The translations under genes were made by a program, and so were the position numbers. DNA of 34,829 nucleotides from an uncultured Spirochaetaceae bacterium (GTDB lineage Bacteria > Spirochaetota > Spirochaetia > SZUA-6 > DRHE01): contig CAZKCQ010000004.1 of NCBI GenBank assembly GCA_964551205.1, positions 1 to 34,829 of the forward strand, given 5' to 3'. Below are positions 6,071 to 33,537 of this stretch, piece after piece. The notes under the pieces were generated by a model. That model ran no database searches. It saw only the letters and a program-made list of their open reading frames with translations, and was not told where the DNA came from. How positions within the stretch are numbered: position 1 is the first letter of the stretch; each line of letters begins with the position of its first letter.

Positions 6071-6910
6071 TTATTGCCCGGCCAGGGATCCTGCAATCAA
6101 ACCCTGAACGAGGTACCGCTGGGCGAAGATGTACAGAATGAGCATAGGCGCTGTCGCCACAGCCATCCCCGACATGATGAGAGGAATATTGATACTGAAC
6201 CTCCCGTGGAACAAAGCCAGGCCGACCATCAGAGTACGCAGTTTTTCCCGCTGCAGAAAGATAAGAGCGACCAGTAGCTCGTTCCAGACATAGAGGGAGC
6301 AAACCACGAACATCGAAAGAAGGATGGGTTTGGACAAGGGTAGCATGATACGCAGGAAGATTCCGAAGCTTCCGCACCCGTCGATAAGGGCGGAGTCAAT
6401 CAGGGGCTGCGGAATGGTTACAAAGAAACTTCGCAATAGATACATGGAAAAGGGGAGAAACATCCCGATGTAGACAATGATTGCTGATGGGTAGGTGTTA
6501 ACCAAACGAACCCTCGCCATGAGCACGAACAGCGGGATAATCATTACAATCGTCGGGATGACCATTAATGCTATTGATGAGTTAATCAGTAACTTTTTTC
6601 CGGGAAAATACATCTTGCTTAAAGCATAAGAGGCCAGAGCACTGATGAAAAGGCAGATAACCACGGTTGTAGCGGTGAGAAGAAGACTGTTGTAGAACCA
6701 TCTTAAGAAGTTCGGTGTAGTGAAAATCTGTGAGAAATTGGCAAAAACCAGTGACGGAGGGAGGGACAGGGGATTATCCGCATAGGCCGATCTGCTCTTC
6801 AAGGCGTTTGTGAAAATGTAGTAGATCGGATAACAGGTCACCACTGCCATGAATAGCAGGAGTAACTGTTTCACGCCATATCCGACCGCTGATTTAATAT
6901 TTATTCTCAT
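6071..6910 (-). CDS. ABC transporter permease, CUT1 MalG-like (importer copy 1)
   Basis: 279 aa, 6 TM. EAA loop LIDSALIDGCGSFGIFLRIMLPLSKP, and WNELLVALIFLQREKLRTLMVGL is shared with the other three MalG-like permeases in the window. Confidence 0.9.
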   Translation of the reverse strand: MRINIKSAVGYGVKQLLLLFMAVVTCYPIYYIFTNALKSRSAYADNPLSLPPSLVFANFSQIFTTPNFLRWFYNSLLLTATTVVICLFISALASYALSKMYFPGKKLLINSSIALMVIPTIVMIIPLFVLMARVRLVNTYPSAIIVYIGMFLPFSMYLLRSFFVTIPQPLIDSALIDGCGSFGIFLRIMLPLSKPILLSMFVVCSLYVWNELLVALIFLQREKLRTLMVGLALFHGRFSINIPLIMSGMAVATAPMLILYIFAQRYLVQGLIAGSLAGQ

Positions 6911-6932
6911 CGCTCCCTCTTCACACCAAGCA

Positions 6933-7850
6933 TCAGTATTCCTCCGCCAATTTTTCCCGGAATCTGTAGGAAATAACGATGAAAATAATGGTAATGATGA
7001 GCAGGATCACCGCGGCTACGGTAGCATGGCCCATGCGGTTGTAGTGGAAAGCCTCTTTGTAGATGTAGAACTCGGTGATCCAGGTCTTGTACCCAGGTCC
7101 ACCGTTTGTCATCACGAAGATGAAGGCGAAAATCTGGCTCAACATCACGATGATGTTCAAGGTCACGAAAAACTCGATCACCGTGCCAAGTTCCGGAATG
7201 ATGATTTTCCCGAATCTTCTCCACCAGCCGGCGCCGTCGATTCGAGCCGCTTCGATGATCCCTTCAGACATGGAGCTCAATCGAGCTAAAAACAGGATGA
7301 CCCCGAATCCGGTCTGCCGCCAGATAATGACCGCTGATATTGTCGGCAGTGCCCAACTCGGATCTACGATCCACTGTTTCTTTATGAAACCCAGCCCAAC
7401 AAGAGTGAGGATCTGATTGAAACCGCCGTTCAGGGAGAAAAAATTCGACATCGCGAATCCGATGGCCACGATCGGGATCACATAAGGTGTAAGTACCAGG
7501 CTTCTGTAGACCTTCCAACCGTGTACGTGGTCGTTGATAACCACCGCAAGTACAAGAGCGATCAAGGTCATGACGGGAACGTTCATTAGCAATAGAATGT
7601 TGTGGTATAACGATTGGAAGAACCGTTCATCCTGGAACACGAGGCGATAATTGCGCAATCCGACAAATTGCCTCGGAGTTTTCAAAAAATCCAGCAGGCT
7701 GAAGCGGCATACCTCCACCACCGGGTAGAAATAGATGAATCCTATTACCAGAAATGCCGGGAGAAGATAGGTGAATGGTTTAAGCGAAAATCTGCTTCCC
7801 CGCAGCAGTGGATTTGATGCGAACCTGTTCATTATTGATAATTTGGGCAC
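6933..7850 (-). CDS. ABC transporter permease, CUT1 MalF-like (importer copy 1)
   Basis: 305 aa. EAA loop IIEAARIDGAGWWRRFGKIIIPEL. GTG start with GGAGGAGGG 9 nt upstream; ATG 7832 is an alternative start. Confidence 0.9.
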   Translation of the reverse strand: MPKLSIMNRFASNPLLRGSRFSLKPFTYLLPAFLVIGFIYFYPVVEVCRFSLLDFLKTPRQFVGLRNYRLVFQDERFFQSLYHNILLLMNVPVMTLIALVLAVVINDHVHGWKVYRSLVLTPYVIPIVAIGFAMSNFFSLNGGFNQILTLVGLGFIKKQWIVDPSWALPTISAVIIWRQTGFGVILFLARLSSMSEGIIEAARIDGAGWWRRFGKIIIPELGTVIEFFVTLNIIVMLSQIFAFIFVMTNGGPGYKTWITEFYIYKEAFHYNRMGHATVAAVILLIITIIFIVISYRFREKLAEEY

Positions 7851-7856
7851 AATGAG

Positions 7857-7888
7857 ATTCCCTCCTCCTTTCTATCGGAGGAGGGAAT
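7857..7888 (-). promoter_or_regulatory. 12-bp stem-loop between SBP1 and its permease gene that sequesters the permease SD
   Basis: ATTCCCTCCTCC (7857..7868) pairs perfectly with GGAGGAGGGAAT (7877..7888) around an 8-nt loop. On the mRNA the 3' arm is the GGAGGAGGG Shine-Dalgarno of the gene starting at 7850. Confidence 0.55.
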
Positions 7889-7924
7889 GCTCATATTAAT
7901 CAAGCGATTTCCAATACAGATAAC

Positions 7925-9277
7925 CTACTTGTATTTGTCCGCATCCTTCTTCCACTCGGCGGCGATTCTCTTGAATCGCTCCAGAGCTTCCGGGAACTCT
8001 CTTCGCCACTTCACAGCCGCATCTTCGTACCTCTGGGCTGCTTCGGCCGCGGAAATGTCACCGATCGATAACAGCTGGGCCGATGCCCAAACCTCGCTTT
8101 CGATCTGCGGGACATAGTGCTCGTTGTACGTGTAGTTCGGCACCTCAACGACCCACTTGGCCATAAGCTTGTCGGCGCTGGTCATTATGTCCAGGCTTAC
8201 TTTGTCGCTGGCCTGTATGGCCCCGCTCTGTTTGTACATAGCGGCTATTCGTTCCTCGGAATGGAGATATCGCAAGAAATCCGCCGCTGTTTCCGGATGC
8301 TTACTCAGCTTGGCTATTCCCAAAGGCATGGTGTAGAAGGGCATACGGCCCGCGAGTTTCCCGGGATTCGGCGGAGTTGGGGAGATCATGACGCTGACCG
8401 AATCTTCACCCAATTCCTTGATATACCCGTTAACCATGGATTGCACGGCAAACACCATCCCGACTTTTCCGTTCAAGTATTTATCGTTTCCCTCGGCAAA
8501 ACCGACCGATGCAGCGTCTTCGTTGAACAGCCCCTTATTTATAAGCTCTTCGATCCTGTACCAAAAGTTTGAATGTTTGGGATCGGTGAAGTGCTGGATC
8601 CCCATCACCGCTTCGTGTAGATCGGACATATCGTCGAGGTTTTGAATCCCCACCAAACATGCCCACCAGACACCCATATAGCCATCCTTGAATCCGCAGG
8701 AGAAGGGCGTAAAGCCGCCCGTGTCCAGTTTTTCCAGTGCACTTACAAAGTCGTTCCACTGCTGCGGCGGGCTGTCGGGATTCAATCCGACCTCTCGATA
8801 GATCTTAGGATTCAAGACTGTTAACCAGGCACCTCCGTAAAGCGGAACGAGCCAGGTGTGCCCGTCCCAGCTGAGCTCTCGTCGTGCAGGTGGAGAGATA
8901 TGGGCTAATTCCTCTTCACTCCAATACTCATCGACAGGTACGATATTCCCGGCTTCCGAACCGTCCATTCCCTGCTGCCTGCCGAACAGTTGAATATCCG
9001 GAGGAGTTCCAGCAGCAAGTTCTGCCTTCCACACTGTGAACAAATCTTCGATCGGTATTTCCGGAGCTTCGACAGTTATGTTGGGATTCTGTTGTTGATA
9101 TAGCTCAGTAGATTCTTTCATCCAGGCAGCCATACCGGGGGCTTCACCATCTCCCCACCAATAACAGCGAATTTCGATCTTTTCCGCTTCCTGGCCTCCG
9201 CCGGAGAACACCGGTACGCTTAGGAAACAGAGCCCTACAACCAGCGCGATGCCAGCCAACAACTTTTTCCTTTCCAT
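7925..9277 (-). CDS. ABC transporter substrate-binding protein, family 1 / CUT1-type (importer copy 1)
   Basis: The track ORF 7925..9484 is trimmed to ATG 9277, which has AGGAGG 6 nt upstream and opens a signal peptide MERKKLLAGIALVVGLCFLSVPVFSGGGQE. It aligns end to end by eye with SBPs 13485..14855 and 21812..23143. Confidence 0.9.
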   Translation of the reverse strand: MERKKLLAGIALVVGLCFLSVPVFSGGGQEAEKIEIRCYWWGDGEAPGMAAWMKESTELYQQQNPNITVEAPEIPIEDLFTVWKAELAAGTPPDIQLFGRQQGMDGSEAGNIVPVDEYWSEEELAHISPPARRELSWDGHTWLVPLYGGAWLTVLNPKIYREVGLNPDSPPQQWNDFVSALEKLDTGGFTPFSCGFKDGYMGVWWACLVGIQNLDDMSDLHEAVMGIQHFTDPKHSNFWYRIEELINKGLFNEDAASVGFAEGNDKYLNGKVGMVFAVQSMVNGYIKELGEDSVSVMISPTPPNPGKLAGRMPFYTMPLGIAKLSKHPETAADFLRYLHSEERIAAMYKQSGAIQASDKVSLDIMTSADKLMAKWVVEVPNYTYNEHYVPQIESEVWASAQLLSIGDISAAEAAQRYEDAAVKWRREFPEALERFKRIAAEWKKDADKYK

Positions 9278-9295
9278 CCCACACCTCCTATAGTT

Positions 9296-9309
9296 TGATA
9301 ACGTTGCCA
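9296..9309. promoter_or_regulatory. LacI-family operator-like palindrome TGATAACGTTGCCA
   Basis: 14-bp CG-centred near-palindrome of the TGnnAACGTTnnCA type. It shares 1 nt with the TATAAT box of the SBP1 promoter. Confidence 0.6.
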
Positions 9310-9339
9310 TTATACTATCATATATTTGCAATTTGTCAA
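9309..9339 (-). promoter_or_regulatory. Candidate promoter of importer copy 1
   Basis: On the minus strand: TTGACA (complement of 9334..9339), 19 nt spacer, TATAAT (complement of 9309..9314). Both hexamers are perfect but the spacer is long. Confidence 0.45.
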
Positions 9340-9347
9340 GAGAATAA

Positions 9348-9361
9348 TGATAACGTAGCCA
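9348..9361. promoter_or_regulatory. Second operator-like site TGATAACGTAGCCA
   Basis: It differs by one base from site 9296..9309. The two centres are 52 bp apart, and this site lies 8 nt upstream of the -35 box. Confidence 0.5.
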
Positions 9362-9372
9362 ATTATCGTTCT

Positions 9373-10206
9373 TTATGACCCGGAGTATAGAGTAACGGTC
9401 AGCTCTACTTCTATTGGGAAAGGCTTTTGAGCGTACGGCTTCATCAGGATGAAAGGAGAGTCCCAGGCCCGAGACCAGTTCCATTCCCGGATATCGCTGG
9501 TTTCGGTGGTTACTTCCATATCTTTGACCATGGCCAGGTGCTCATACACTCCGGGACTTGAAAAATAGCAGTAGTGGCCGAAACTGCAGCGATGCAACCT
9601 CTCTGGATCTTCCTTTTCCGGGTAATTGAACCAGACAATCTCGAATGCGATGGGCCGTGGAGTTGGCTTCATGTCAAGAACCTCCAGCCGGAGATGGTAG
9701 ACACCGTCTGCATAGCTAACCGGTGCCGCCCAATTCATCGGTACGTTAATGGGGTGATCCACTTCCATGATGAAATCCCAGTCGTCGTAGAGGATGTTTT
9801 TTCCCTCGAAAGTATAGGTCCCCTTGAGAAATGTGAAAGATTGCAGCGCTTCCTGTCCGGTTATTCCTTGCAACCGCTTGGTTTCGCTCAATCGACCGTC
9901 AGCCAGTCTTGCCAAAGCCTCCTCCCCGGTGCCCGGGAAACCGCTGTACACCTTCACCCCCCGGTAAGCCAGTAGATTCATACACTGAGGATGGATCTTC
10001 CCGCAAATCACGGTATCCACATCCTTGTCGAGGAAGACGGCGACTGCCTGTGCACCAACGAAATCCTCCCGGTTCCTACAGCAATTCAAAATGCAATCGA
10101 TTTCATTCGTCCCTGAATCATAGATCAGATAATAGATCGCACTGGCAAAATCCTTCGTGATGTTCTCAGTAAGTATCTTACCGATCGCCGGTATCCCTAC
10201 TCTCAT
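9373..10206 (-). CDS. NifX/NifB-C-like (dinitrogenase FeMo-cofactor-binding fold) domain fused to an unknown ~170-aa C-terminal domain
   Basis: Residues 1 to about 105 (MRVGIPA...DFASAIYYLIYD...VDTVICGKIHPQCMNLLAYRGVKVYSG..GTGEEAL) follow the pattern of small NifX/NifB-C-like proteins. The remainder (FTFLKGTYTFEG...LHRCSFGHYCYF...VELTVTLYSGS) is unrecognised. AGGAGG lies 5 nt upstream of ATG 10206. Confidence 0.65.
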   Translation of the reverse strand: MRVGIPAIGKILTENITKDFASAIYYLIYDSGTNEIDCILNCCRNREDFVGAQAVAVFLDKDVDTVICGKIHPQCMNLLAYRGVKVYSGFPGTGEEALARLADGRLSETKRLQGITGQEALQSFTFLKGTYTFEGKNILYDDWDFIMEVDHPINVPMNWAAPVSYADGVYHLRLEVLDMKPTPRPIAFEIVWFNYPEKEDPERLHRCSFGHYCYFSSPGVYEHLAMVKDMEVTTETSDIREWNWSRAWDSPFILMKPYAQKPFPIEVELTVTLYSGS

Positions 10207-10234
10207 AATTCCTCCTTCATTCTCCGATTAGAGT

Positions 10235-11539
10235 TTATTCTAAACCGAGCCCTTCGATCTTCGAGACAGCCCAAAGCGCTCGGTTTCGAACCGTTGCGTG
10301 CAGGTCGTGAGCTGCTTGCCACAAATGTGGAAGCACCGGCTTGGCGCAGGCAGGGATACTTCCCAGACATTCGGCAGCCAGAAATCGCAGATCCGACTCG
10401 ACATCAGAGAGCATAGACACAAGTGTATCAACTTTGCTCTCTCCTTCTTCGGCAACCTGCCCAAATGACCACAGGGCCGCCCAGCGCGCTTCTATTTCGG
10501 GGTGAGTTACACCCTGGACTTCTTCCATAAATCGGGCCAGCTGCTCCGCAACCTCTGTCCCCCCTTTCCCGGTCCACCCCAACGCCCAGGCAACCCGAGC
10601 CCGAACCGGGCAATCCTTCCGCCCGAGGACGCCGAGGAGCTCCGATACCGCAACTGAAGAGCCATACCCGATCTTACCCAAAGCCTCCGCAGCGGTTCCC
10701 TGAATTTCAGGCTCCTGGTTATGCAGGAGTCCAACGAGAACCGGTATCTGTTTGAAGCCGCTCGGTCCCAGATCACCGATATCCTCGATAGCCTGAACTC
10801 CCAAATCCATTCCATTCTCATTTTTGCTTTTGGCCGCAGAGTCTCCGGATGCTCCTGCATTAAAACCGTCTTGGGGGAGATCCGAGAACAACGGGGACTG
10901 CCCATCCGTTTCTTTCCAGGTTGGTTCAATCTCTCCCAGAGTACGAGCTGCCTGGAAGCGTAGGATGGGGTGCGAATCGGACAGGCACGCTTTTACCAGC
11001 GGTATAGCGGCCTGCGCCGCCCTCCCGATTCTCTGCAGAGCCCAGACCGCAACCAGGCGGTGGGAGACGTCCCGCTGCGCAACAACCCGCATCAGCTGGG
11101 AAACCACCTGCTTCGCCGGAGCGGCGATTTCTCCCAATGCCCAGACCGCAGCCCACGAGGCGTGGGAGTCGACGTCCCATATTGAAGAGATCAAGCGCGG
11201 AACAGCAGCAGATGCCTTCTGGCCCGCTCTTCCCAAAGCATAAGCGACTCGGGCGTTAAAATCAGTTTCGTCTTTTCCCTCCAGCATCTCCGCCAGGATG
11301 GGAATTGCATTACTTTGAAAAGCGCCAATCTTGCCTAAGGCCTCGGCGGCTGTGCCACGGACATCACCATCCCCGTCGGCCAGAAGAGGATGAAGAAGGG
11401 ATAAGAGCTCATCTTCGTTCGGGTACAGCTCTCCAAGCTGCCAGGCCGCTTCCACTCGGCTGAGACGATGTTCTGACCTGGTTTTTCGGCAGATTTCCTC
11501 GAATGTCTCCAAGAGCAATCCTCTGGGGTAATTCTTCAT
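10235..11539 (-). CDS. HEAT-repeat protein, PBS-lyase HEAT-like type (paralogue 1)
   Basis: 434 aa with about 11 repeats of the form D.d..VR..AAeALGkIG....aiP.L (e.g. DGDVRGTAAEALGKIGAFQSNAIPILAEML). Two repeat blocks are split by a low-complexity linker (..SDLPQDGFNAGASGDSAAKSKNENG..). The gene starts 15 nt after the permease stop. Confidence 0.85.
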   Translation of the reverse strand: MKNYPRGLLLETFEEICRKTRSEHRLSRVEAAWQLGELYPNEDELLSLLHPLLADGDGDVRGTAAEALGKIGAFQSNAIPILAEMLEGKDETDFNARVAYALGRAGQKASAAVPRLISSIWDVDSHASWAAVWALGEIAAPAKQVVSQLMRVVAQRDVSHRLVAVWALQRIGRAAQAAIPLVKACLSDSHPILRFQAARTLGEIEPTWKETDGQSPLFSDLPQDGFNAGASGDSAAKSKNENGMDLGVQAIEDIGDLGPSGFKQIPVLVGLLHNQEPEIQGTAAEALGKIGYGSSVAVSELLGVLGRKDCPVRARVAWALGWTGKGGTEVAEQLARFMEEVQGVTHPEIEARWAALWSFGQVAEEGESKVDTLVSMLSDVESDLRFLAAECLGSIPACAKPVLPHLWQAAHDLHATVRNRALWAVSKIEGLGLE

Positions 11540-11554
11540 AAAAGCAACCCGGTC

Positions 11555-12427
11555 CTATTCTTTCAACGAACCGGCTACCAATCCGCGAACCAGATACTTC
11601 TGGCAGAACACGTAAAGCACAATCATGGGGACGATTGCGGTGGACATGCCGGCCATCAGCAGGGGAACGTTGACGCTGAACCGTCCCTTCAGAAGGGTAA
11701 GACCCACCATGATGGTTCGCAGATGCTCCCTCTGCATAAATATCAGTGCAATCAGCAGTTCGTTCCAGACCCACAACGTGCAGACAACCAGAAGTGCGAA
11801 CATCACTGGTTTGGAAAGGGGCACCAAGATTCTCCGCAGAATGCCGAAGCTGCCGCAACCGTCAACCCGGGCGGAATCCAGCATAGCCTGGGGGATGGTA
11901 ATGAAGAAACTTCGCAGCAGATAGATACTGAAAGGCAGGAGCATCCCCGCATAAATTATAATTACCGCCGGGTAGGTGTTTACCAGTCCAAAACGAGACA
12001 TCAGCACGAACAGTGGGATCATCATAACGATCGGTGGGACAACCATGAGAGATATGATGAAATTATGGAGCAATCGTCGGCCTACAAACTTCATGCGGCC
12101 GAGAGCATAGGCGGCAAGACTGCCCGTAACCAGGGTGACCAGCACGGCCCCGGCAGCCAGCAACACGGTGTTGGCGAACCAGCGCAGGAAATTCGGTGCG
12201 TTGAACACCTGCACGAAATTGTAGAGAACGACCTCCCTTGGTAGGGATATCTGGCTCTGGGCATAGGCGACTCGGGTTTTAAAGGAGTTGACGAGTACAT
12301 AGTACACCGGGTAGATCGTCGAAAAAGCCATTAATACCAGAAGGGCTTGCTTTATCCCCTGAGTGAATCCACGGAAAAGAAGGGCACCAATATCCCCTTT
12401 TCTCTTTCGCCTACTCATACTGTTCAC
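11555..12427 (-). CDS. ABC transporter permease, CUT1 MalG-like (importer copy 2)
   Basis: 290 aa. MLDSARVDGCGSFGILRRILVPLSKP and WNELLIALIFMQREHLRTIMVGL. GTG 12427 or ATG 12418 is the start, and either overlaps the 3' end of the upstream permease gene. Confidence 0.9.
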   Translation of the reverse strand: MNSMSRRKRKGDIGALLFRGFTQGIKQALLVLMAFSTIYPVYYVLVNSFKTRVAYAQSQISLPREVVLYNFVQVFNAPNFLRWFANTVLLAAGAVLVTLVTGSLAAYALGRMKFVGRRLLHNFIISLMVVPPIVMMIPLFVLMSRFGLVNTYPAVIIIYAGMLLPFSIYLLRSFFITIPQAMLDSARVDGCGSFGILRRILVPLSKPVMFALLVVCTLWVWNELLIALIFMQREHLRTIMVGLTLLKGRFSVNVPLLMAGMSTAIVPMIVLYVFCQKYLVRGLVAGSLKE

Positions 12428-13319
12428 TCAGTTTCTCTCTGAACCGAAAGGACAGGACTATAAAGGTAATCGTGATAATCAGAAGCACGACTGCAACCAC
12501 GGCAGAGGCGCCCATCTTGTTGAACTGAAAAGCCTGTTTGTAGATGTACAATTCCGATACCCAAGTGCTGTATCCGGGTCCCCCACCGGTCATGACGAAG
12601 ACGTAGGGAAAAATCTGGCTCAACATGGCGATAATATTGATGATCACGAAGAACTCGATCACCGTGGTCAGCTCCGGTACCACGATGCACCACAGCCTGC
12701 GCCACCAGCCAGCGCCGTCGATCCGCGCCGCCTCTAATATTTCCGGCGGCATCGAACCCAATCTGGCGAGGAATAGGACCGTACCGAAACCTATTTCTCT
12801 CCATATAATAATCACTGCTACGGAGAACAGGGACCACGTTGGATGACCGAGCCACTGCCTCTGGAAGCTTTTCAATCCGATCAGTTCCAAAAGCTGATTC
12901 AAACCTCCATGAAGCTTGAAAAAATGGGACATCGCTATGCCGATGGCTACGATCGGAACCACATAGGGAATGAGAAGCAGGCTCCTGTAGAATTTCCAAC
13001 CCCACACCTCCTCATGGAGAAGGACAGCAATTATGAGGGCAATCACTACCATGACGGGTATGGTCAGCAACAGCTCGAAGTTGTGGAGCATGGATTGGTA
13101 GAAGCGGGGATCTTTAAGCACGATCCTGAAGTTTTCAAGCCCGATGAAATCGCCGGGCCAGGATCGCAGGTCGAGAAAACTGAAATGTACTACTTGTACT
13201 ACCGGATACAAATAGATAAATCCGAGAATGAATAACGCCGGCAGCATATACAGATAGGGCTCGATCTTGACGGCCGCCCGATTTCTACTCGATTTATTGC
13301 CTGCTGATCCAGAACTCAC
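12411..13319 (-). CDS. ABC transporter permease, CUT1 MalF-like (importer copy 2)
   Basis: 302 aa. ILEAARIDGAGWWRRLWCIVVPEL. GTG start with AAGGAAGG 6 nt upstream. Confidence 0.9.
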   Translation of the reverse strand: MSSGSAGNKSSRNRAAVKIEPYLYMLPALFILGFIYLYPVVQVVHFSFLDLRSWPGDFIGLENFRIVLKDPRFYQSMLHNFELLLTIPVMVVIALIIAVLLHEEVWGWKFYRSLLLIPYVVPIVAIGIAMSHFFKLHGGLNQLLELIGLKSFQRQWLGHPTWSLFSVAVIIIWREIGFGTVLFLARLGSMPPEILEAARIDGAGWWRRLWCIVVPELTTVIEFFVIINIIAMLSQIFPYVFVMTGGGPGYSTWVSELYIYKQAFQFNKMGASAVVAVVLLIITITFIVLSFRFREKLSEQYE

Positions 13320-13419
13320 CTGCGACCTTCCTTTTCTGCATTTTTATCTAGGGAGAGAACACCTGTTCAACCAAATCGATCTTATCTACCCGATGCTCTC
13401 CGGAACACCCGATTGGAAC

Positions 13420-13444
13420 AGCCCCCTCCTCAGAAGAGGGGGCT
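13420..13444 (-). promoter_or_regulatory. 9-bp GC-rich stem-loop in the SBP2-permease spacer
   Basis: AGCCCCCTC (13420..13428) pairs with GAGGGGGCT (13436..13444) around a 7-nt loop. No U-tract follows on the mRNA. Confidence 0.4.
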
Positions 13445-13484
13445 ATTGTTAATGAGGCATTCTCTCATCAAGAAACAGGTTCTG

Positions 13485-14855
13485 TCACGGTGCAGTCTGT
13501 TTCCATTCCGCTGCTCGTTTTTTGAAGCGCTCCAGCGAGTCCGGATAGTCCGCCCTCCACTGGGCTGCGGCGTTCTCCATGTTCTGGGCTGCCTGCTCGG
13601 CGGTGATCTCTTTGATTGCCAACAATTGAGTTGAAGCCCACACCTCGCTCTCGATCTGAGGAGTGTAGTGCCAGTTGTATGTCGGCCCTGGGATATCGAC
13701 GGCCCACTGCGCAACGATTTTGTCGGATTCGCTCTTGATTAGTGCTGGATTCAGCTGATCGCTGGCCTGCATGGCACCGCTGACCAGATACATTGCAGTG
13801 ATTCTTTCCGGTGTATACATGAAGCGAATGAAGTCCGCAGCCACTTGCGGATGCTTACTCGCTTTGGCAAGGCCTATGGGCATGCTCGGAACCGGCATGG
13901 TCCCGGCCAGCTTGCCGGGCTTGGGGGGCTCGGGTGTCAGCATCGCGCCCACCGTGCCTTCCCCCATCTCCCGAACATAGGCAGCCATCATGGGCTGCAC
14001 GACGAACACCATTCCCGTATCTCCGGCCATGAATTGATCATTGCCCTCGACAAAACCGAGAGAGCCGCAATCGTCGTTGAACAAACCTTGATTGTTGAGA
14101 GTTTCGATCTGTTTCCACCAATCAACGTGCAGTGGATCGGTGAAGCTCGTCTTGCCGACCACCGCATCGTGTAAGTCGGACATATCATCGAAAGCCTGGT
14201 AGCCGAACAAACAGGCCCACCAAACTCCCATGTATCCGTCCTGGAATCCGATGGAAAAGGGAATCGATCCAGAAGCTTTCATCTTTTTCAAGGCTGCTAC
14301 AAACCCGTTCCAATCCTGCGGTGGATTTTGGACGTCTACACCGGCGGCGGAGAAGACCTTCTTGTTGAAAGCCATCAGCCAGGCGTCCATATAGAGGGGT
14401 ACCAGCCAGGTGCGGCCGCTCCAGGATAGCTCCCTCCTAGCCGGGGCAAGCAGATGGGAGAGCTCCTCCTCGGTCCAGAACTCGTCAATAGGCACGATGT
14501 TTCCGGCGGCCGCTTCATCCAGGCCCTCCTGGGGAGACAGGTTTTGTATATCCGGCGGATCACCGGCGGCTACCGCCGCTTTCCAGGTCAAGTAGATATC
14601 TTCGATAGGAATCTCGTGCGGCTCGATGGTGACATTGGGATGCTCTTTGCCGTATAGCTGCGCTGACTCCTTGACCCACTGGGCCATTCCAGGGGCCTCC
14701 GCCTCTCCCCACCAGTGCATCCGAATGGTAACCTTCTCCGCTTCAGCCATCTCTGCCCCAGCGGGCTGTTTCTCCTGTCCGCCTCCTGCAAATGCAACTG
14801 TGGCGATAGTCAGGAGTACATTTACACAGAGAAATAACACAATGCTTTTTTTCAT
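13485..14855 (-). CDS. ABC transporter substrate-binding protein, family 1 / CUT1-type (importer copy 2)
   Basis: 456 aa with signal peptide MKKSIVLFLCVNVLLTIATVAFAGGGQE. GGAGG lies upstream of the ATG. It is the closest paralogue of SBP1 (EKVTIRMHWWGEAEAPGM.., ARRELSWSGRTWLVPLY, MSDLHDAV, TPQIESEVWAS). Confidence 0.9.
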   Translation of the reverse strand: MKKSIVLFLCVNVLLTIATVAFAGGGQEKQPAGAEMAEAEKVTIRMHWWGEAEAPGMAQWVKESAQLYGKEHPNVTIEPHEIPIEDIYLTWKAAVAAGDPPDIQNLSPQEGLDEAAAGNIVPIDEFWTEEELSHLLAPARRELSWSGRTWLVPLYMDAWLMAFNKKVFSAAGVDVQNPPQDWNGFVAALKKMKASGSIPFSIGFQDGYMGVWWACLFGYQAFDDMSDLHDAVVGKTSFTDPLHVDWWKQIETLNNQGLFNDDCGSLGFVEGNDQFMAGDTGMVFVVQPMMAAYVREMGEGTVGAMLTPEPPKPGKLAGTMPVPSMPIGLAKASKHPQVAADFIRFMYTPERITAMYLVSGAMQASDQLNPALIKSESDKIVAQWAVDIPGPTYNWHYTPQIESEVWASTQLLAIKEITAEQAAQNMENAAAQWRADYPDSLERFKKRAAEWKQTAP

Positions 14856-14957: not shown

Positions 14958-16337
14958 CTATCGCCCCTTTATCCGTTTCAGAGCCCAGACGGCTCTGGAA
15001 CGTACGATCGGATGATTGTCCTCTTTCAATACCTCCAGCGCCGCTTCAGCCTGCCCGGCTGCGGGTCCGATATACCCGAGGTTCTCCGCAGACATAGCCC
15101 GCACGTCGGAGTCCTCATCGGCCAGACTCGCGATCAGATCCGGCACGATTTCCTTGCCGAGATAGTCCACCCGAGCCAGAGCCCAGGTGGCGTGATAGCG
15201 GATTTCGAGGTTTCTGTGCTCGCTTCCCGCGTAGTCTCGGAGCTGTTGCCTCAGATGGGGTATTGCCTCCGCAGCTCTAGGGCCCAGCAGCCCTACGGCC
15301 CAGTCGAGGGAGGCCAGCATCTGTGGCCGAGCCTGTAGAAGAAGTGCCACCAGCGCGGTGCTCGCCTGCATCGACGTGACACCGATTTTGGCAACCGCCA
15401 GCGCCGCGCTACCCTGAAGGTGTTCATTCTTCAACAGGGGAAGAAGCTCGGGAATGATCTTCTCAACCGGAGGACCTAGCTCTCCTATAGCTCTGATGCA
15501 ATCCTGCTGGGCGTCCAAATCCCGATTTGCGATCTGTTCCAGGTAGTGTTCGGCTCGTCGAATCCTGCCCGAGTCCCCTGCGGCTCTCCCAGACTCCGAT
15601 ATGATCCCAGGCGCGGATGTTGCGGATTCTTCTGAAATCAATGCAGCGGAAACGATGGCCCGATGGCTGATTTCCGGGCAGGGGTCTGTTTCTGAAAGCG
15701 CGTGCAAAGATGGGAGGGCCGATTCCGCGGCGCTGCCGATTTCACCGAGTGCCCAGGCGGAAAGCTCTCTAACCAGAGGATGAACATCCTGAAGAGACAT
15801 TAACAGCCGAGGCACTGCAGAAGAGGCATCCCTCCCGATCAATCCCAAAGCCTTTGCGGCTCCCCAACGCTGATCGGACAGGTCTTTGTCCAATCCTCTG
15901 GATATCTGTTCGGTAACCTCTGGTGTGTTGATGCCGATCTCCGCCAGTGCCCAGAGAGCCGTATCGTAGGCATGGGTGTTGTCTCGGCGAAGCAGTTCGA
16001 GGAGTGTGGGTACGACCTGAGACGCATTCTTGCCGGCCCGACCCAGGGCGAATATACAGCGGGCTCGTCCCATATCGTCGGTTTCTCGTTCAAGAAGCTG
16101 TATTATGGGTGGGACAGTCTCAGCAGCGAGACAGCCGATTCGTCCGAGGGCTTCAGCCGCCGCCCCTCGGACACTCGGCTCCGGATCGCGGAGAGCCCCC
16201 TTCAACGACGCAATGATTGTGCTGGAGGGATCACATATTTCCCCCAAACGCCAGGCCGCCTCCACCCTTCTCATCGGGTCGGAAGCGGAAAGTTCGTTTA
16301 TCAACACGTCAATCAAATGCTTCTCCCTCAGAACCAC
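14958..16337 (-). CDS. HEAT-repeat protein, PBS-lyase HEAT-like type (paralogue 2)
   Basis: 459 aa with the same repeat type (DPEPSVRGAAAEALGRIGCLAAETVPPIIQLL) and the same two-block layout as 10235..11539. The N-termini are related (RVEAAWRLGEI versus RVEAAWQLGEL). The GTG start immediately follows the TGA of the corrinoid protein gene (TGAGTG). Confidence 0.85.
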   Translation of the reverse strand: MVLREKHLIDVLINELSASDPMRRVEAAWRLGEICDPSSTIIASLKGALRDPEPSVRGAAAEALGRIGCLAAETVPPIIQLLERETDDMGRARCIFALGRAGKNASQVVPTLLELLRRDNTHAYDTALWALAEIGINTPEVTEQISRGLDKDLSDQRWGAAKALGLIGRDASSAVPRLLMSLQDVHPLVRELSAWALGEIGSAAESALPSLHALSETDPCPEISHRAIVSAALISEESATSAPGIISESGRAAGDSGRIRRAEHYLEQIANRDLDAQQDCIRAIGELGPPVEKIIPELLPLLKNEHLQGSAALAVAKIGVTSMQASTALVALLLQARPQMLASLDWAVGLLGPRAAEAIPHLRQQLRDYAGSEHRNLEIRYHATWALARVDYLGKEIVPDLIASLADEDSDVRAMSAENLGYIGPAAGQAEAALEVLKEDNHPIVRSRAVWALKRIKGR

Positions 16338-16988
16338 TCAACTCTTGCCAACAAGTTTTTTGCAGAGGTTGATGGCTCGTAGAGCATCCGGAGCAAACCC
16401 GTCTGATTCAACCTCATTGGCGTACTCCTGGGTAATCGGCGAGCCGCCGACTATGACCTTGGCCTTACCTCCGCTGCCCCGAATGGCCTTGATCGCCGGC
16501 TTCATGGCCAGCATGGTCTGGGTCAGCAGGGCGGATAGGCCGACGATATCCGCCTTGTCCTTGTTAGCTGCATCCACAATCTCCTGGATCTTCGCATTGA
16601 CTCCCAAATCGTTCATGCTGAAGCCCGCAGCCTCGAGCATCATGCTGACCAGATTTTTGCCGATGTCGTGTACATCCCCTTCCACCGTGGCGATGACGAT
16701 CTTCCCAAGAGATTCTCCGCCGCCGGCTTGCTCCCAATACGGTTTCATCAGCTCCGTGGCCGCCTTCATGGCTTTGGCAGACAGGATCACTTCAGGAAGC
16801 CACATCTCGTAGGCTTTGAACCTCTCTCCCACAACATCCATGCCCGCAACCAGACCCTCCTTCAGGACCTTCTGAGGCTCCGTGCCCTTGTCCATAAACT
16901 CCTTGGTTAGCGCAGTTGCCTTCTGTTCATCTCCCGAAATTATCGAAGCTTTCAATTCTTCAAACATGCTGTTGTCCTCCATACTCAT
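16338..16988 (-). CDS. Methyltransferase-cognate corrinoid protein (B12-binding cap + Rossmann domain)
   Basis: 216 aa. An N-terminal helical cap is followed by the B12-binding motif set GDVHDIGKN (DxHxxG), SALLT (SxL) and VIVGG. Size and layout match MtgC/MttC/MtaC-type corrinoid proteins. Confidence 0.9.
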   Translation of the reverse strand: MSMEDNSMFEELKASIISGDEQKATALTKEFMDKGTEPQKVLKEGLVAGMDVVGERFKAYEMWLPEVILSAKAMKAATELMKPYWEQAGGGESLGKIVIATVEGDVHDIGKNLVSMMLEAAGFSMNDLGVNAKIQEIVDAANKDKADIVGLSALLTQTMLAMKPAIKAIRGSGGKAKVIVGGSPITQEYANEVESDGFAPDALRAINLCKKLVGKS

Positions 16989-17011: not shown

Positions 17012-18445
17012 TCAGATCTCGAGTTTCAGGCTCTTCTCGAGTGCTTTGTCCTGCTTGGCCCGCTCGTAGATCCTGTCGAGTTCCTTTTTCACATCCCGGT
17101 CAATCTCGTAGCTGTGCTCGGCAACCAGCTTTTGAGCGATCTCCCGCGCCTGCTGGCGAATCGATTTCTGACCCAGCTCGATCCACTGGCCCAGATTCGA
17201 ATGTTCGAACAGTTGAGGCATCCAGTACTCCTTGCGAAACATCTCGTAGGTGCTATTCTTGTCGACATAGGTGCCTCCCGGTCCTACATCGATGATGTCC
17301 TGGATCATCAGACGTTCCTCACTGAACTCCTCTTCCTTGAGGACGTTCCGGATGTACTGCAGCATCTCATCCAGTATCACCACCCATTCACCGCTGTAGA
17401 TCTCTCCGGTCGACAGCAGCCCGCCGCAACGAAAGGCCCTTGCCCCAGCCAATCCCGCGATCAAGGTGTGGATACCCATCTCAGCCGCGGCGTGGGCATC
17501 CGGCTCCTGGGAACTGGTCAAAAGGCTCTTTACGATAATAGGTAGGTCGTAATACTTGCACAGAGCGATCTGATGCAGAGAGTGCTGTACGTACTCCACC
17601 GATCCGTATACGAAGGTGGTGTACTTCATGCTGAAAGTGTTGGCTTCAAAGGCATCGTTGGGGGAGATGTAGTTGTTCCCCTTGGGGTTCATCAGGTACA
17701 GTACGGTCAAGCCAGCAAAATGCTCGTACATGCTCTGCAATACCGTTCCCAGAATGGTTATCGGGGCGGTAACCCCCGCTTGAGGCATGGTTGCCAACCA
17801 CATCGGGATGCCCTTATCCCGCAACCTGAAGGCCACATCGAGGTTGTGCGCGTCGAAGGACTTGGGACTGATCATCCAAATCCCGAAGGTGAAGCGTTTT
17901 CCCGCGGCTTGGGCCATCTCGTACACATAGTTGGCGCACTCGTAGGAGGGCTTATCCATGTGCTCAAAGATGTCGTTGCAGCGGTAACGTGAGTTCTCCC
18001 AGGCCGCTTTGTGCATTAGAATGTGCTGCAGATGCCCTGGCACATCCATCGGTACCACCGGCGCCGAGCCCACTGTGTCCAGGGCATCCCCAAGTTTGAT
18101 AAATTTCACCAGGTCATCAGCCGAGGCCTGTTTCAGCTTCCCCGTATCCAGATCGTAACAGGCGGTCTGATGGGCTCCGGCGGACATGAACCACTTGCCC
18201 CGCTTGTAGTACTCCGGAACATCGTAAACCGCAGCAGCCATGGCTTTCTGAACCAGATCCGGTTTAAATCGCACCATTTCCCCGTCAATTGTCACACCGT
18301 TGTGATCGGCCATCAGCTTCAGAACACCCTCATGGGGGACCTGGATACCGGAGGTTTCGATTAGCCACATGGCTTTTTCGTGCATATAGTCGATCTGTTC
18401 TTTCCGCAAGCCCCCCGCAAGCTCAAAGTTTTCTAATTTCATCAT
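17012..18445 (-). CDS. MttB-family (trimethylamine methyltransferase superfamily) methyltransferase, non-pyrrolysine, paralogue 1
   Basis: 477 aa and uninterrupted, with no in-frame TAG. The N-terminus L..EQIDYMHEKAMWLIETSGIQV...VRFKPDLVQKAM and the C-terminal ..GTYVDKNSTYEMFRKEYW...LGQW fit the MttB-family pattern. AAGGAG lies 5 nt upstream of the ATG. Confidence 0.85.
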   Translation of the reverse strand: MMKLENFELAGGLRKEQIDYMHEKAMWLIETSGIQVPHEGVLKLMADHNGVTIDGEMVRFKPDLVQKAMAAAVYDVPEYYKRGKWFMSAGAHQTACYDLDTGKLKQASADDLVKFIKLGDALDTVGSAPVVPMDVPGHLQHILMHKAAWENSRYRCNDIFEHMDKPSYECANYVYEMAQAAGKRFTFGIWMISPKSFDAHNLDVAFRLRDKGIPMWLATMPQAGVTAPITILGTVLQSMYEHFAGLTVLYLMNPKGNNYISPNDAFEANTFSMKYTTFVYGSVEYVQHSLHQIALCKYYDLPIIVKSLLTSSQEPDAHAAAEMGIHTLIAGLAGARAFRCGGLLSTGEIYSGEWVVILDEMLQYIRNVLKEEEFSEERLMIQDIIDVGPGGTYVDKNSTYEMFRKEYWMPQLFEHSNLGQWIELGQKSIRQQAREIAQKLVAEHSYEIDRDVKKELDRIYERAKQDKALEKSLKLEI

Positions 18446-18478
18446 CTCTTCTCCTTCTCATACCATTATCCTGACGGA

Positions 18479-19906
18479 TTAGTACTGCCGTTCTTTGGCC
18501 AGTGCTTCGTCCTTAGCCGCGATTTCGTAGATCCTGTCCAGCTCGCGTTTTTTCTCCGGCTCGATCTCGTAGGCATGTTCTTTCAAGAGCTTCTTTGCCC
18601 GCTCATTGGCAATCTGTACGAAGCTCTTCGAGCCCATCTCCTGCCACTGTCCCAGATTGGAATGAAGAAATACGTTGGGATCCCAGTACAGGGTTCGGTA
18701 ATGCTTGAAGGTGCTGGGGTGTTCGAGAAAGCTCTCCCCTGGTTTGATCTTGGCAATGGCATCAAACAGCAGCATCTCGTCGCTGAACTCCTCTGGTTCC
18801 AAGACATTTTTGATGTACTGAACGATCTCGTAGTCAAGCACGAGCTTTTCAGCGGCGTACACCTCGGCGCTGGTCAACAGGCCACCGCAACGGAACTCCT
18901 TGGCTCCGGCCAGAGCCGCCATCAACGTGTACATGCCCACCTCCGCTGCACACTGCGCGTCCACCTCTTTAGCTGCTGTGAGCAGTGATTTTGCCGCCAG
19001 CGGCATCTTCAGGTGCTTGTGGATCGACAGCTTGTCAACCGTGGCTCGCACGTCCTCTGCGGAACCGTACACGAAGGTGGAGTATTTCATGTCGAAGGGG
19101 TGGGCGATAAAGCTGTCGATGATCTGGATATAGTTGTAGCTTTTGGTGTTCAGAAGGTTCAGCATGGTAAGACAGGCGTAGGTCTCGAACATGGCCTGCT
19201 GGATCCCCGCCTTTTCGGTAATCGGGGAATTCACGCCCATGATCGGCATGGTGCCGGCCCACATGGGAACGCCCTTGTCTAGAAACTTATCGATGATTTC
19301 CAGCTCCACGACATCGAAGGAACGCGGGCTCACCATGTACAGGCCAAGGGCAAACCACTTGTCGGCGATCTTAGACATCTCGTAGATGTACTCGGCGCAG
19401 CGAACCGTCGGTTTCGGGTCATGCTCGAACATATCGTTCGCCCGGCGCCGCGAGTTCTCCCAGGCAACTTTATGCATCATGATCTCCTGGAGCTGGATCG
19501 GTACGTCCATCGGTACCACCGGAGCCGATCCCACCGTGTCCAGGGCATCACCGATTTTGATCATCTCGACCAAGTCTTTATGGGTGGTTTCCCGGATCTT
19601 TCCTGTGTCCATGTCCAAGATCTTTGTCTGGTGAGCCCCGGCGGAGATCACCCAACCGTCCTCGTAGTAATCGGGCAGAGGGAACCTCATCTCCTGGATG
19701 GCTTTGATCACCAGATCCGTGCGGAACTTCACCATCTGGGAGGTTTTGTCTATGGTGACTCCGTTGATGCCATGCAGGCGGTTGAGCAGTCCCTCGTGAG
19801 GAATGTGCAGGCCGACTGTCTCTACCAGCTCGATCGCTTTGTCCCGCATCAGATCGATCTGTTCGGGCCTCAGACCTCCCGCCAGGGTGTAGGCGTGTAA
19901 CATCAT
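18479..19906 (-). CDS. MttB-family methyltransferase, non-pyrrolysine, paralogue 2
   Basis: The track ORF is trimmed to ATGATG at 19906, which has AGGAGG 8 nt upstream, giving 475 aa. It shares AGAHQT, GDALDTVGSAPVVPMDVP, MHKxAWENSR, MKYxTFVYGS, FRCGGLL and HSNLGQW with paralogue 1. Confidence 0.85.
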   Translation of the reverse strand: MMLHAYTLAGGLRPEQIDLMRDKAIELVETVGLHIPHEGLLNRLHGINGVTIDKTSQMVKFRTDLVIKAIQEMRFPLPDYYEDGWVISAGAHQTKILDMDTGKIRETTHKDLVEMIKIGDALDTVGSAPVVPMDVPIQLQEIMMHKVAWENSRRRANDMFEHDPKPTVRCAEYIYEMSKIADKWFALGLYMVSPRSFDVVELEIIDKFLDKGVPMWAGTMPIMGVNSPITEKAGIQQAMFETYACLTMLNLLNTKSYNYIQIIDSFIAHPFDMKYSTFVYGSAEDVRATVDKLSIHKHLKMPLAAKSLLTAAKEVDAQCAAEVGMYTLMAALAGAKEFRCGGLLTSAEVYAAEKLVLDYEIVQYIKNVLEPEEFSDEMLLFDAIAKIKPGESFLEHPSTFKHYRTLYWDPNVFLHSNLGQWQEMGSKSFVQIANERAKKLLKEHAYEIEPEKKRELDRIYEIAAKDEALAKERQY

Positions 19907-19964
19907 CTGTCTATCCTCCTGTCTGTCTATGTTGATTCTGTTGCTGGTTATCCTTGATTTTCCG

Positions 19965-20840
19965 CTATCCTTTGATTGCACCGGCTACCAAGCCTTTTAC
20001 AAAATACTTCTGCGTAAATATGTAGAGTAGGAGGATCGGCAAGATCCCGGAAACCAGACCAGCCATTATCGTTGGCACATTGACCGTGTATCGCCCCTGA
20101 AGAAGGGTTAATCCGACCATCAGTGTTCTCAGTTTTTCTCGCTGAAGAAAAATCAAAGATATCAAAAATTCGTTCCAAGCCCATAGCACGTCATAAACCA
20201 CGAGAGTCATAAGCGCAGATGCCGACAAGGGGATCATGATGCTACGATAGATGCGAAAGCTCCCACATCCATCGATTAGCGCAGAATCCAAGATCGATTG
20301 TGGAACGGTGATGAAATAGCTGTACAGCAGGTATACGTTAAAGGGCAACAATACACCGATATAAATTACTATCACACTTATATATGAATTATTCAATCTG
20401 AATCGGCCAAAGAGCACGAAGAGAGGGATAATCATTACAATAACGGGTATCACCATTAAACTGATTACTGAATTTAAGATAAGCCTCTTACCCTTGAATT
20501 CCATTTTGCTGATGACAAATCCTGCCATCGAACTGAAAAATAGACAGAGCAGGACTGAAGCCACGGTAACAATCAACGTATTTGTCAACCATCTTGGGAA
20601 CTTCTCGCCAAAGAACACTTTTCTATAAGCATCGAATACGATTCCAGGCGGTAAACCGATTTTATTCGAATTGTATTCAATTTTCGTTTTAACCGAGTTG
20701 ACAATCACAAAATACAGTGGATACAGCGATAAAATTGTCAGTGTGATCAGGATCAGGTGCTTCACAACACCGGTTCCCAGTTTCTTTGCTCTGCGCAACA
20801 TCCGTTCTGAATCGATGCTCCTACGAACTGCTTTCCTCAC
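19965..20840 (-). CDS. ABC transporter permease, CUT1 MalG-like (importer copy 3)
   Basis: 291 aa. ILDSALIDGCGSFRIYRSIMIPLSAS and WNEFLISLIFLQREKLRTLMVGL. GTG start with AAGGAG 8 nt upstream (AAGGAGAAG 5 nt upstream). It overlaps the upstream gene by 20 nt. Confidence 0.9.
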   Translation of the reverse strand: MRKAVRRSIDSERMLRRAKKLGTGVVKHLILITLTILSLYPLYFVIVNSVKTKIEYNSNKIGLPPGIVFDAYRKVFFGEKFPRWLTNTLIVTVASVLLCLFFSSMAGFVISKMEFKGKRLILNSVISLMVIPVIVMIIPLFVLFGRFRLNNSYISVIVIYIGVLLPFNVYLLYSYFITVPQSILDSALIDGCGSFRIYRSIMIPLSASALMTLVVYDVLWAWNEFLISLIFLQREKLRTLMVGLTLLQGRYTVNVPTIMAGLVSGILPILLLYIFTQKYFVKGLVAGAIKG

Positions 20841-21755: not shown

Positions 21756-21779
21756 GGGGGTATTGAAAACAATACCCCC
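21756..21779 (-). promoter_or_regulatory. 10-bp stem-loop in the SBP3-permease spacer
   Basis: GGGGGTATTG (21756..21765) pairs with CAATACCCCC (21770..21779) around an AAAA loop. A T6 run (21785..21790) follows only when read on the plus strand. Confidence 0.45.
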
Positions 21780-25678: not shown

Positions 25679-25694
25679 GGACGAAGACCTCTGT

Positions 25695-26672
25695 TCATGA
25701 AGCAACAACTTCCTGGATCGCAGCTTCGATATCGGGGACGCCGGGAAGAACATAGTCTTCCATTACCGAGGGAAAAGGAATCGGAGTCCACTTGGCTCCC
25801 ACCCGTTTAATGGGCGCATCGAGATATCCGAATGCCTCGTCGGCGACGATAGCAGCGATCTCCCCACCGAAACCGCCCGTCACGTGAGCTTCATGGACGA
25901 TCACGAGCCTGTTCGTCTTTTTTACTGACTTTAGGATCGTCTCTTTATCGAGAGGTACCAGGGTCCGTGGATCCACCACTTCGACGGAGACTCCCTTTTG
26001 CTCCATGTTTCCCGCCGCCTGGAGGGACAGGTGAACGGTGTACGATGTAGCGACCAGGGTTACATCCTTTCCTTCCCTCTTGATTTCCGCCTTGCCGAGC
26101 GGTATCTCGTACTCCTCCTCCGGAACTTCCCCTTTCATTGGAAGCAGTTTCTTGTGTTCGATAAATACAACCGGATTGTTATCCCTTATAGCTGTCTTCA
26201 TCAGTCCTTTGGCGTCGTACGGCGTGGAGGGCATGACGGTTTTTAAACCAGGCACGTGGGCAACCCAGGCTTCCAAGCACTGTGAGTGCTGCTGCGCCGC
26301 CCGAATATAGCCGCCCGCTGCGGTGAGAATGACCATGGGAACACTCATCTGACCTCCGAAGGTATGGTAGAACTTCGCAGCCTGGTTCACGATCATATCC
26401 ATGCACATGGGCATGAAGTCCATGAACGGGATTTCCACGATGGACCTGCAGCCTGTGATGGCTGCACCGATGCCGCAACCCACTATCCCCTGCTCGGAGA
26501 TAGGGGCATCCTTGACTCGCAAATCACCGTACTTGCTATAAAGATCCCCGCTGATGCGGTGTTCGCCGCCGTATTTGCCAACATCGTAAGCCATCAGGAA
26601 CAGATGCTCGTCCTTTTTCATCTCCTCGGTCATGGCTTCCCTAAGCGCTTCCCGATACATGATTTCTCTCAT
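25695..26672 (-). CDS. 2-oxoacid (acetoin/pyruvate-type) dehydrogenase E1 beta subunit
   Basis: 325 aa. REALREAMTEEMKKDEHLFLM..DVGKYGG...RVKDAPISEQGIVGCGIGAA is a typical E1-beta transketolase-like Pyr domain, followed by a C-terminal domain. GGAGG lies 7 nt upstream of the ATG. Confidence 0.9.
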   Translation of the reverse strand: MREIMYREALREAMTEEMKKDEHLFLMAYDVGKYGGEHRISGDLYSKYGDLRVKDAPISEQGIVGCGIGAAITGCRSIVEIPFMDFMPMCMDMIVNQAAKFYHTFGGQMSVPMVILTAAGGYIRAAQQHSQCLEAWVAHVPGLKTVMPSTPYDAKGLMKTAIRDNNPVVFIEHKKLLPMKGEVPEEEYEIPLGKAEIKREGKDVTLVATSYTVHLSLQAAGNMEQKGVSVEVVDPRTLVPLDKETILKSVKKTNRLVIVHEAHVTGGFGGEIAAIVADEAFGYLDAPIKRVGAKWTPIPFPSVMEDYVLPGVPDIEAAIQEVVAS

Positions 26673-33532: not shown

Positions 33533-33537
33533 GATTG

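Follow-up and report, generated by a model that had tools for sequence, protein, structure and literature searches.

A two-armed HEAT-repeat protein encoded with tandem MttB and corrinoid-protein genes: a candidate binding adaptor of a demethylase operon

The DNA considered here (the window) is a stretch of 34,829 nucleotides (nt), contig C4 of a 73%-complete metagenome-assembled genome of an uncultured Spirochaetaceae bacterium; nearly all of its genes lie on the minus strand. The gene of interest, HEAT_A, encodes a protein built of HEAT repeats and is wedged between the last permease gene of an importer and a gene for a NifX-like fusion protein. The evidence tips, modestly, toward HEAT_A being the second gene of an old tandem HEAT pair in an MttB-MttB-corrinoid demethylase operon, its product serving as a binding adaptor. 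The gene and its parts are these:

10235..11539, minus strand: HEAT_A, an ATG-start open reading frame (ORF) of 434 amino acids (aa), clade A of its family, identified by its HEAT_2 match, its orthologues (35-93% identical) and its place in the tree
11540..11554, minus strand: 15-nt spacer from the stop codon of the permease gene perm2b to the HEAT_A start, read directly from the sequence
10907..11515, minus strand: predicted N-terminal six-repeat arm (about residues 9-211), from the helices of the AlphaFold2 model and the alphaRep match
10799..10906, minus strand: non-repeat linker (about residues 212-247), holding a low-complexity peptide and modelled with low confidence
10253..10798, minus strand: predicted C-terminal arm, likewise of six repeats (about residues 248-429), which duplicates the N-terminal arm in register, from AlphaFold2 helices

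HEAT_A is a real gene. The original prediction, which was made from the sequence alone, placed a 434-aa ORF 15 nt past a permease stop, and ORF, translation and spacer all agree: the gene for perm2b, a BPD_transp_1 permease (11555..12427), ends with TAG at 11555 and the HEAT_A ATG lies at 11539. The spacer holds no obvious Shine-Dalgarno-like sequence; the NifX-fusion gene follows HEAT_A after 28 nt, its ATG preceded by AAGGAGG. Pfam HEAT_2 (PF13646) matches the protein with 149.4 bits (cut-off 27.7) in six stretches. The peptides that had been quoted are present as written in the translations of HEAT_A and of its paralogue HEAT_B, both the related N-termini (RVEAAWQLGEL and RVEAAWRLGEI) and the linker. 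Simple hydropathy fits the claim that neither protein has a transmembrane segment or a signal peptide (over 19 residues the Kyte-Doolittle mean peaks at 1.14 in HEAT_A and 1.41 in HEAT_B, and the N-termini of the two are not hydrophobic). Promoter-like and terminator-like sites in the window are about as frequent as in shuffled sequence (18 against 15.0 and 18 against 18.3) and do not delimit transcription units.

What kind of protein is it? The AlphaFold2 model (mean per-residue confidence, pLDDT, 87.1; predicted template-modelling score, pTM, 0.87) is all-helical and made of two blocks, with pLDDT below 50 for residues 1-8 and, in the linker, 219-243; the linker region of the family alignment is gapped and variable, and the clade B insert is longer. 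The two arms align with each other in register (residues 29-205 with 248-429: 30% identity, 72 bits, E 2e-20), out-of-register alignments scoring 32 and 30 bits, and each block therefore has about six repeats. Model and arm alignment together sustain the proposal of two repeat blocks with a non-repeat linker between them. HEAT_A is the product of three layers of duplication: of the repeat, of the six-repeat arm, and of the gene. It shares with HEAT_2 ("PBS-HEAT-like") proteins and with alphaRep the same 31-residue, two-helix repeat, and its fold is that of an alphaRep-type HEAT-like solenoid: an arm superposes on alphaRep 7p0h_A with Z 18.2 and a root-mean-square deviation (rmsd) of 2.2 Å over 200 residues, and on 4xl5_C with Z 17.1 and 2.4 Å (200-201 residues aligned across the arms). 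By sequence, too, its top PDB matches are HEAT_2 and alphaRep proteins (profile E 3e-68 to 1e-20). A Foldseek comparison of the whole protein with solved chains gave no full-length match (TM 0.22-0.40), and a search of the ESM Atlas gave generic HEAT clusters only. HEAT_A is a solenoid of the cytoplasm, in which a predicted disordered linker connects two alphaRep-type arms of six repeats each. It differs from HEAT_2 and alphaRep proteins in this two-armed build, in conserving positions that vary freely there, and in its fixed operon context.

(A technical note on two named families. Deoxyhypusine hydroxylase, 4d4z, likewise has two symmetric HEAT blocks joined by a loop, and HEAT_A aligns with it at Z 13.2 and rmsd 12.3 Å. 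That enzyme is defined by four His-Glu metal-binding motifs; HEAT_A has no His-Glu dipeptide and no Pfam or NCBIfam match to the enzyme's family, and the identity was rejected. So was membership of the DVU0298 family, NF045662, for which HEAT_A scores 60.4 bits against a cut-off of 75.)

HEAT_A and HEAT_B had been called paralogues, and end-to-end alignment, tree and reciprocal best matches uphold this. Residues 26-430 of the one and 22-458 of the other are collinear, with 33% identity over 439 columns (E 2e-59), and each is the other's best match in their own genome, where the next match stands at E 2.5e-4. The further expectation, that they be each other's closest homologues, holds within the genome and fails beyond it: orthologues found elsewhere are closer (63-93% identical for A, 56-81% for B). 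A word-indexed search brought up 13 proteins, all metagenomic, of 384-447 aa and 34-93% identity, below which come generic HEAT proteins. In a maximum-likelihood tree of 24 rows (19 of the family, with a partial copy from the L091 contig omitted, and five other HEAT proteins) the family rows are grouped apart from the rest with support 100/99. They divide into a clade A of 14 rows that includes HEAT_A (98/98) and a clade B of five (100/97): HEAT_B of the window, its counterparts in L090 and G011, the L092 protein, and P0015. (L090, L091 and L092 are metagenomic loci and G011 a genome; all return below.) HEAT_A has both the family's collinear six-plus-six repeats and a place in one of its clades. 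It follows from the two-clade tree that the A/B duplication predates the lineages of the window, L090, G011 and L092; the split of the two genes is older than every lineage sampled.

The A/B family is rare and unnamed, and at the loci with known context firmly tied to one operon. A first scan of genome contigs with a single protein query returned no relative; among 20 other genomes of the taxonomic family only G011 has a member; and none was found at E <= 1e-40 in 400 other genomes sampled across the phylum. Two further matches, in another taxonomic family, are 600-aa proteins matched over one arm only. At E <= 0.001 a profile search among 1.84 billion cluster representatives yielded 134,001 matches, swamped by giant multi-repeat proteins; the best 150 of them include seven single-stretch proteins of 345-475 aa, three of clade A and four of clade B.

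The operon, as the window has it, comprises the following:

18479-19981, minus strand: MttB1 (Pfam MTTB), in tandem with MttB2
17012-18445, minus strand: MttB2 (Pfam MTTB), in tandem with MttB1
16338..16988, minus strand: MtgC-like corrinoid protein with B12-binding and B12-binding_2 domains, adjoining HEAT_B on its upstream side
14958..16337, minus strand: HEAT_B, the clade B paralogue
11555..14855, minus strand: importer 2 cassette, between HEAT_B and HEAT_A (by Pfam, the substrate-binding protein SBP2, 13485-14855, and the permeases perm2a, 12411-13319, and perm2b, 11555-12427)
9373..10206, minus strand: NifX-like fusion gene with a Nitro_FeMo-Co domain (Pfam), the downstream neighbour of HEAT_A, present also in L090
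5315..6043, minus strand: DUF1638 gene (Pfam), ending the block of HEAT_A, NifX fusion and importer 3; its L090 orthologue is 86% identical

By Pfam, and in the order in which it is transcribed, the whole window reads: two permeases, an alcohol dehydrogenase (ADH), a LacI regulator (on the plus strand) and a GFO/IDH/MocA oxidoreductase; an M24 protein, 2-oxoacid dehydrogenase E1 alpha, E1 beta and E2, and a creatinase-like M24 protein; importer 1 (binding protein and two permeases), MttB1, MttB2, the corrinoid protein and HEAT_B; then importer 2, HEAT_A, the NifX-like fusion, importer 3, DUF1638, a TPR protein and others. The start of HEAT_B is probably not the GTG at 16337 that abuts the TGA of the corrinoid gene; the TTG at 16316 (giving 452 aa), preceded by GAGGGAG, appears the better choice, as orthologues begin MIDELL or MDESLL at the matching residue.

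How constant is this neighbourhood? L090, a related 42-kb metagenome contig with enzymes 83-93% identical to the window's, has the window's gene order minus importer 2: corrinoid protein, HEAT_B (68% identical), HEAT_A (63%) and NifX fusion. There the TGA of HEAT_B overlaps the ATG of HEAT_A (ATGA), and the NifX fusion comes 28 nt later, the same distance as in the window. G011 reads M24, E1, E2, M24, MttB, MttB, corrinoid protein and HEAT_B, followed by no recognisable gene; the importer there, an Opp-type one, lies far upstream, and the operon has no CUT1 importer. The short contig L091 holds MttB2, corrinoid protein and HEAT_B. L092 has MttB, MttB, corrinoid protein, a five-gene Opp importer with two ATPases, a clade B HEAT gene and a small FeS-domain protein (11357-11980, 207 aa, PF04060 "putative Fe-S cluster") in the slot that the NifX-like fusion occupies in the window and L090. 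The tandem MttB pair (17012..19981 in the window) is kept in G011, L090, L092 and in two sister genomes, G012 and G019; the order corrinoid gene, then HEAT_B, in L090, L091 and G011. At each of the five loci with flanking DNA (window, L090, L091, L092, G011) the family is found in an MttB-MttB-corrinoid operon, and the HEAT gene was rightly said to be no random neighbour. In G012 and G019 MttB1, MttB2 and the corrinoid protein are followed by a CUT1 importer. Since the importer varies in kind and place and the HEAT genes can be absent, it is the two methyltransferases and the corrinoid protein that are the constant partners.

(The two sister operons, L189, at 6504-13397 of G012:C16, and L190, at 7270-14067 of G019:C24, have their CUT1 importer directly after the corrinoid gene; the permeases are 76-89% identical, by aligned segment, to the right-end permeases of the window, 32663-34422. 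No HEAT, NifX-fusion or DUF1638 gene lies within 19 kb of either operon. When corrinoid proteins of HEAT-bearing and HEAT-less loci are aligned, the wrong-frame L190 row being void, no HEAT-specific tail or insert appears.)

The company of importers suggested a different role: that HEAT_A serves the ATPase-less CUT1 permeases, on their cytoplasmic side, as a regulator, a coupling factor or a protein that hands on the substrate, and was duplicated together with them. Its start 15 nt past perm2b might couple its translation to that of the permease, the L092 gene likewise stands behind importer genes, and an ABC importer is present somewhere in the cluster at four loci (window, L090, L092, G011). 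The rest of the evidence makes this very improbable. L090 keeps the two HEAT genes abutting with no importer 2 between them, and importer 2 most resembles importer 3 (55-61% identity), with importer 1, the one upstream of HEAT_B, at 46-50%; co-duplication of HEAT gene and importer, as originally proposed, is contradicted on both counts. Nor does the proposed functional tie to the transporter survive: HEAT_B follows the corrinoid gene, not a permease, in the window, L090, L091 and G011; the neighbouring importers represent two kinds that are not related, CUT1 lacking an ATPase and Opp having two; and G012 and G019 have operon and CUT1 importer with no HEAT gene. The place of HEAT_A behind a permease is secondary and tells nothing about transport.

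The premise that an ATPase gene would normally occupy the slot after the permeases is also weak: none of the window's four CUT1-type importers has one, and the genes after their last permeases (ADH, MttB1, HEAT_A and DUF1638) are unrelated to one another. HEAT_A itself has no match to Pfam ABC_tran (PF00005). A MalK/MsmX-type ATPase (ABC_tran, OB_MalK and TOBE_2 domains) is encoded elsewhere in the genome, at a contig end (G000:C64:10020-12322, L192), which counts further against the importer-linked role; it is a candidate for the shared ATPase of the four ATPase-less importers. (Its gene adjoins one for an HpcH-type aldolase; no permease gene is near it in the DNA examined.)

The interposed importer is not an artefact of assembly, because contigs of two sequencing runs bridge both of its junctions: those of run X6, from a salt marsh, with 0-1 differences, and those of run X17, from marine sediment and another study, with 20 and 114. 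The latter differences mean that a diverged relative shares the arrangement. (Three small joints in X17 have a shorter side of 23-36 letters, an unreliable range, and none of them skips importer 2.) Was the cassette gained in the window's lineage or lost from that of L090? Gain is the likelier event, if by no wide measure, because a clean deletion would be less likely to leave an overlap as exact as the ATGA of L090. For SBP2, the 20 other genomes of the taxonomic family offer no close orthologue, and the best match there is 35% identical.

A second alternative is that HEAT_A is a passenger: a generic repeat protein kept by linkage alone, with no specific role in the pathway. Such repeats are indeed everywhere, as the more than 134,000 profile matches attest; HEAT genes of this family evolve fast; and G012 and G019 do without any. 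Against this stand the retention of two copies since before the lineages split, the open-framed and collinear state of all 18 rows of the family alignment at 30-92% identity, and an operon context that is constant between lineages with methyltransferases as much as about 25% apart.

The state of the binding face argues in the same direction, for this family conserves a face that generic repeats leave hypervariable. According to a passage in PMC3754942, alphaRep has its variable positions (18, 19, 22, 23, 26 and 30) on the concave binding face. Carried onto 11 HEAT_A repeats by sequence alignment, these positions define 66 face columns, for which the mean top-residue frequency in the 18-row family alignment is 0.68, compared with 0.76 for 99 scaffold columns and 0.49 for the other 201 columns of the arms; 50 columns of the alignment are invariant. 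Twelve face residues have a top-residue frequency of 1.00 (W33, E37, G62, E66, A96, R97, R104, E137, E350, S382, D383 and E390; W33 and E37 are missing from the N-terminally truncated row P0013), and these hold across clades A and B. An aromatic ladder (W33, Y100, W129, W133, W166, W318, W322, W353, W357, W423) runs along the same face. A speculative reading of the Trp residues as an aromatic cage for a quaternary amine was considered and set aside. The conservation pattern is what a repeat protein with one constant partner would show, and it suggests that HEAT_A and HEAT_B have similar targets. All told, the passenger explanation is improbable.

A third possibility is more specific: that HEAT_B and HEAT_A bind the corrinoid itself and aid its loading or retention together with the NifX-like protein and DUF1638. 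The precedent would be CpcE/CpcF and other E/F-type bilin lyases (5n3u, 7mc4), which share with the pair their HEAT-like repeats, adjacent paralogous genes (with overlapping stop and start in L090) and association with a tetrapyrrole-carrying protein. HEAT_A has a weak profile similarity to CpcE (5n3u_A, E 5e-11); His126, His346 and His414 are invariant or nearly so; and the neighbouring genes encode a cofactor-binding NifX-like domain and DUF1638, which passages of a fitness study (10.1101/192971) tie to B12 reactivation together with a RamA-like protein, a link repeated in a proteomic study (PMC12478193). The resemblance does not extend to identity: the NCBIfam models of these proteins give HEAT_A 26-46 bits against cut-offs of 220-600 (CpcE 35.4 against 330, CpcF 25.8 against 220, CpeY 36.1 against 600, NblB 46.1 against 300), and assignment as a bilin lyase or NblB was rejected. 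The structural matches to CpcE (5n3u_A, Z 12.4, rmsd 6.8 Å) and to 7mc4_A (Z 10.9) rank among those to many unrelated solenoids, that to CpcE being no better than they are; the host is a non-photosynthetic, spirochaete-type bacterium with no phycobiliprotein in view; and G011 and L092 hold only the clade B gene in the DNA examined. HEAT repeats are not known to have a corrinoid-binding motif, and this too counts against a chaperone. Co-folding of HEAT_B with HEAT_A (score 0.00, mark 0.32) counts neither for nor against their binding each other. Direct handling of the tetrapyrrole, as an analogy, seems doubtful.

We return, then, to the tandem pair of the demethylase operon. Under this reading HEAT_B and HEAT_A, in that order, would belong to a conserved MttB-MttB-corrinoid-protein operon; in the window's lineage an importer cassette stands between them, while in the relative L090 they abut, with stop and start overlapping; and HEAT_A would work as a binding adaptor, with two concave faces, lined by conserved Trp, Arg and Glu, holding a partner from the corrinoid methyl-transfer and maintenance set. 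The candidates are the corrinoid protein, the MttB pair, the NifX-like protein and DUF1638. The role would be helpful yet dispensable, and not essential to the core reaction, because the operons of G012 and G019 have no family member. Its conserved neighbour, the NifX fusion, the DUF1638 gene that ends the block, with its reported B12 link, the RACo/RamA-like gene elsewhere in the genome and the fast evolution that the pair shares with the NifX fusion may point, loosely, to a part in looking after the corrinoid protein and not to catalysis or transport.

Several points weigh against this interpretation: 1) Genomic context is known for only five loci, and G012 (97% complete) and G019 (68%) keep MttB1, MttB2 and the corrinoid gene with no family member at E <= 1e-10. 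2) The HEAT genes evolve fast, which could be a sign of relaxed constraint: between window and L090 HEAT_A is 63% and HEAT_B 68% identical, compared with 93% for MttB, 85% for the corrinoid protein and 90-95% for permeases. 3) The concave face was mapped by sequence alignment to alphaRep and not from model coordinates. 4) Composition does not help to tell insertion of the cassette from its loss: per-gene GC and GC3 (GC content at third codon positions) do not single out importer 2, whose GC3 of 0.64-0.66 falls within the locus range of 0.50-0.76. (The other fastest genes in the comparison with L090 are the NifX fusion, 68%, and an SDH-type protease, 67%; the slower genes around the HEAT pair, namely enzymes, importers, DUF1638 and TPR, are all at 83-95%.)

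In sediments and guts, non-pyrrolysine MttB systems remove methyl groups from quaternary amines and related compounds; methyltransferases, a corrinoid protein and an activase are the components that have been described. With the MtgB-MtgC-MtgA systems, whose helpers are RamA and DUF1638, the window shares MttB genes, an MtgC-like corrinoid protein, DUF1638 and, elsewhere in the genome on contig C17, a RACo/RamA-like gene; its corrinoid protein differs from MtgC in falling below the cut-offs (179 against 310 and 177 against 370). (The activase gene, G000:C17:13381-14136, L194, scores 264 bits and has one in-frame TAA in the matched frame: it could represent two genes, a sequencing error or a broken gene.) A full-text literature search found no paper linking HEAT repeats to corrinoid methyltransferases or non-pyrrolysine MttB systems; the two papers that mention both HEAT repeats and corrinoids seem to concern other matters. 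A rare, operon-bound repeat pair with a conserved face points to an additional helper for which no one has yet searched, and the pair is a small, well-folded candidate for partner identification. A bolder proposal, which we consider unlikely, is that HEAT_B, HEAT_A, the NifX fusion and DUF1638 form an unrecognised corrinoid-care module with the HEAT pair as a two-subunit chaperone of a tetrapyrrole or of the corrinoid protein, similar in logic to the CpcE/CpcF pair. Were it true, the module would serve the B12 cofactor or the protein that carries it, by loading, holding or protecting it while reductive reactivation takes place.

Some smaller features of the window remain to be recorded. The LacI-family regulator (30520-31575), between the ADH and GFO genes, is the sole sizeable gene on the plus strand; G011 has an unannotated 361-aa ORF at the equivalent place. 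No E3 gene was seen in the window. The longest E2 ORF (24458-25753) overlaps the E1 beta gene by 59 nt (25695-25753), so that E2 probably starts later. The longest ORF for SBP3, the binding protein of importer 3 (7925-9484, 519 aa), shares 112 nt (9373-9484) with the NifX-fusion gene, and its SBP domain starts only at residue 116; SBP1 and SBP2 have 443 and 456 aa. The true SBP3 start, to judge from these coordinates, is probably further downstream. Hairpins are common after binding-protein genes, and the window has two such GC-rich stem-loops, of 9 and 10 pairs, at 13420-13444 in the gap between SBP2 and perm2a and at 21756-21779 in that between SBP1 and perm1a.

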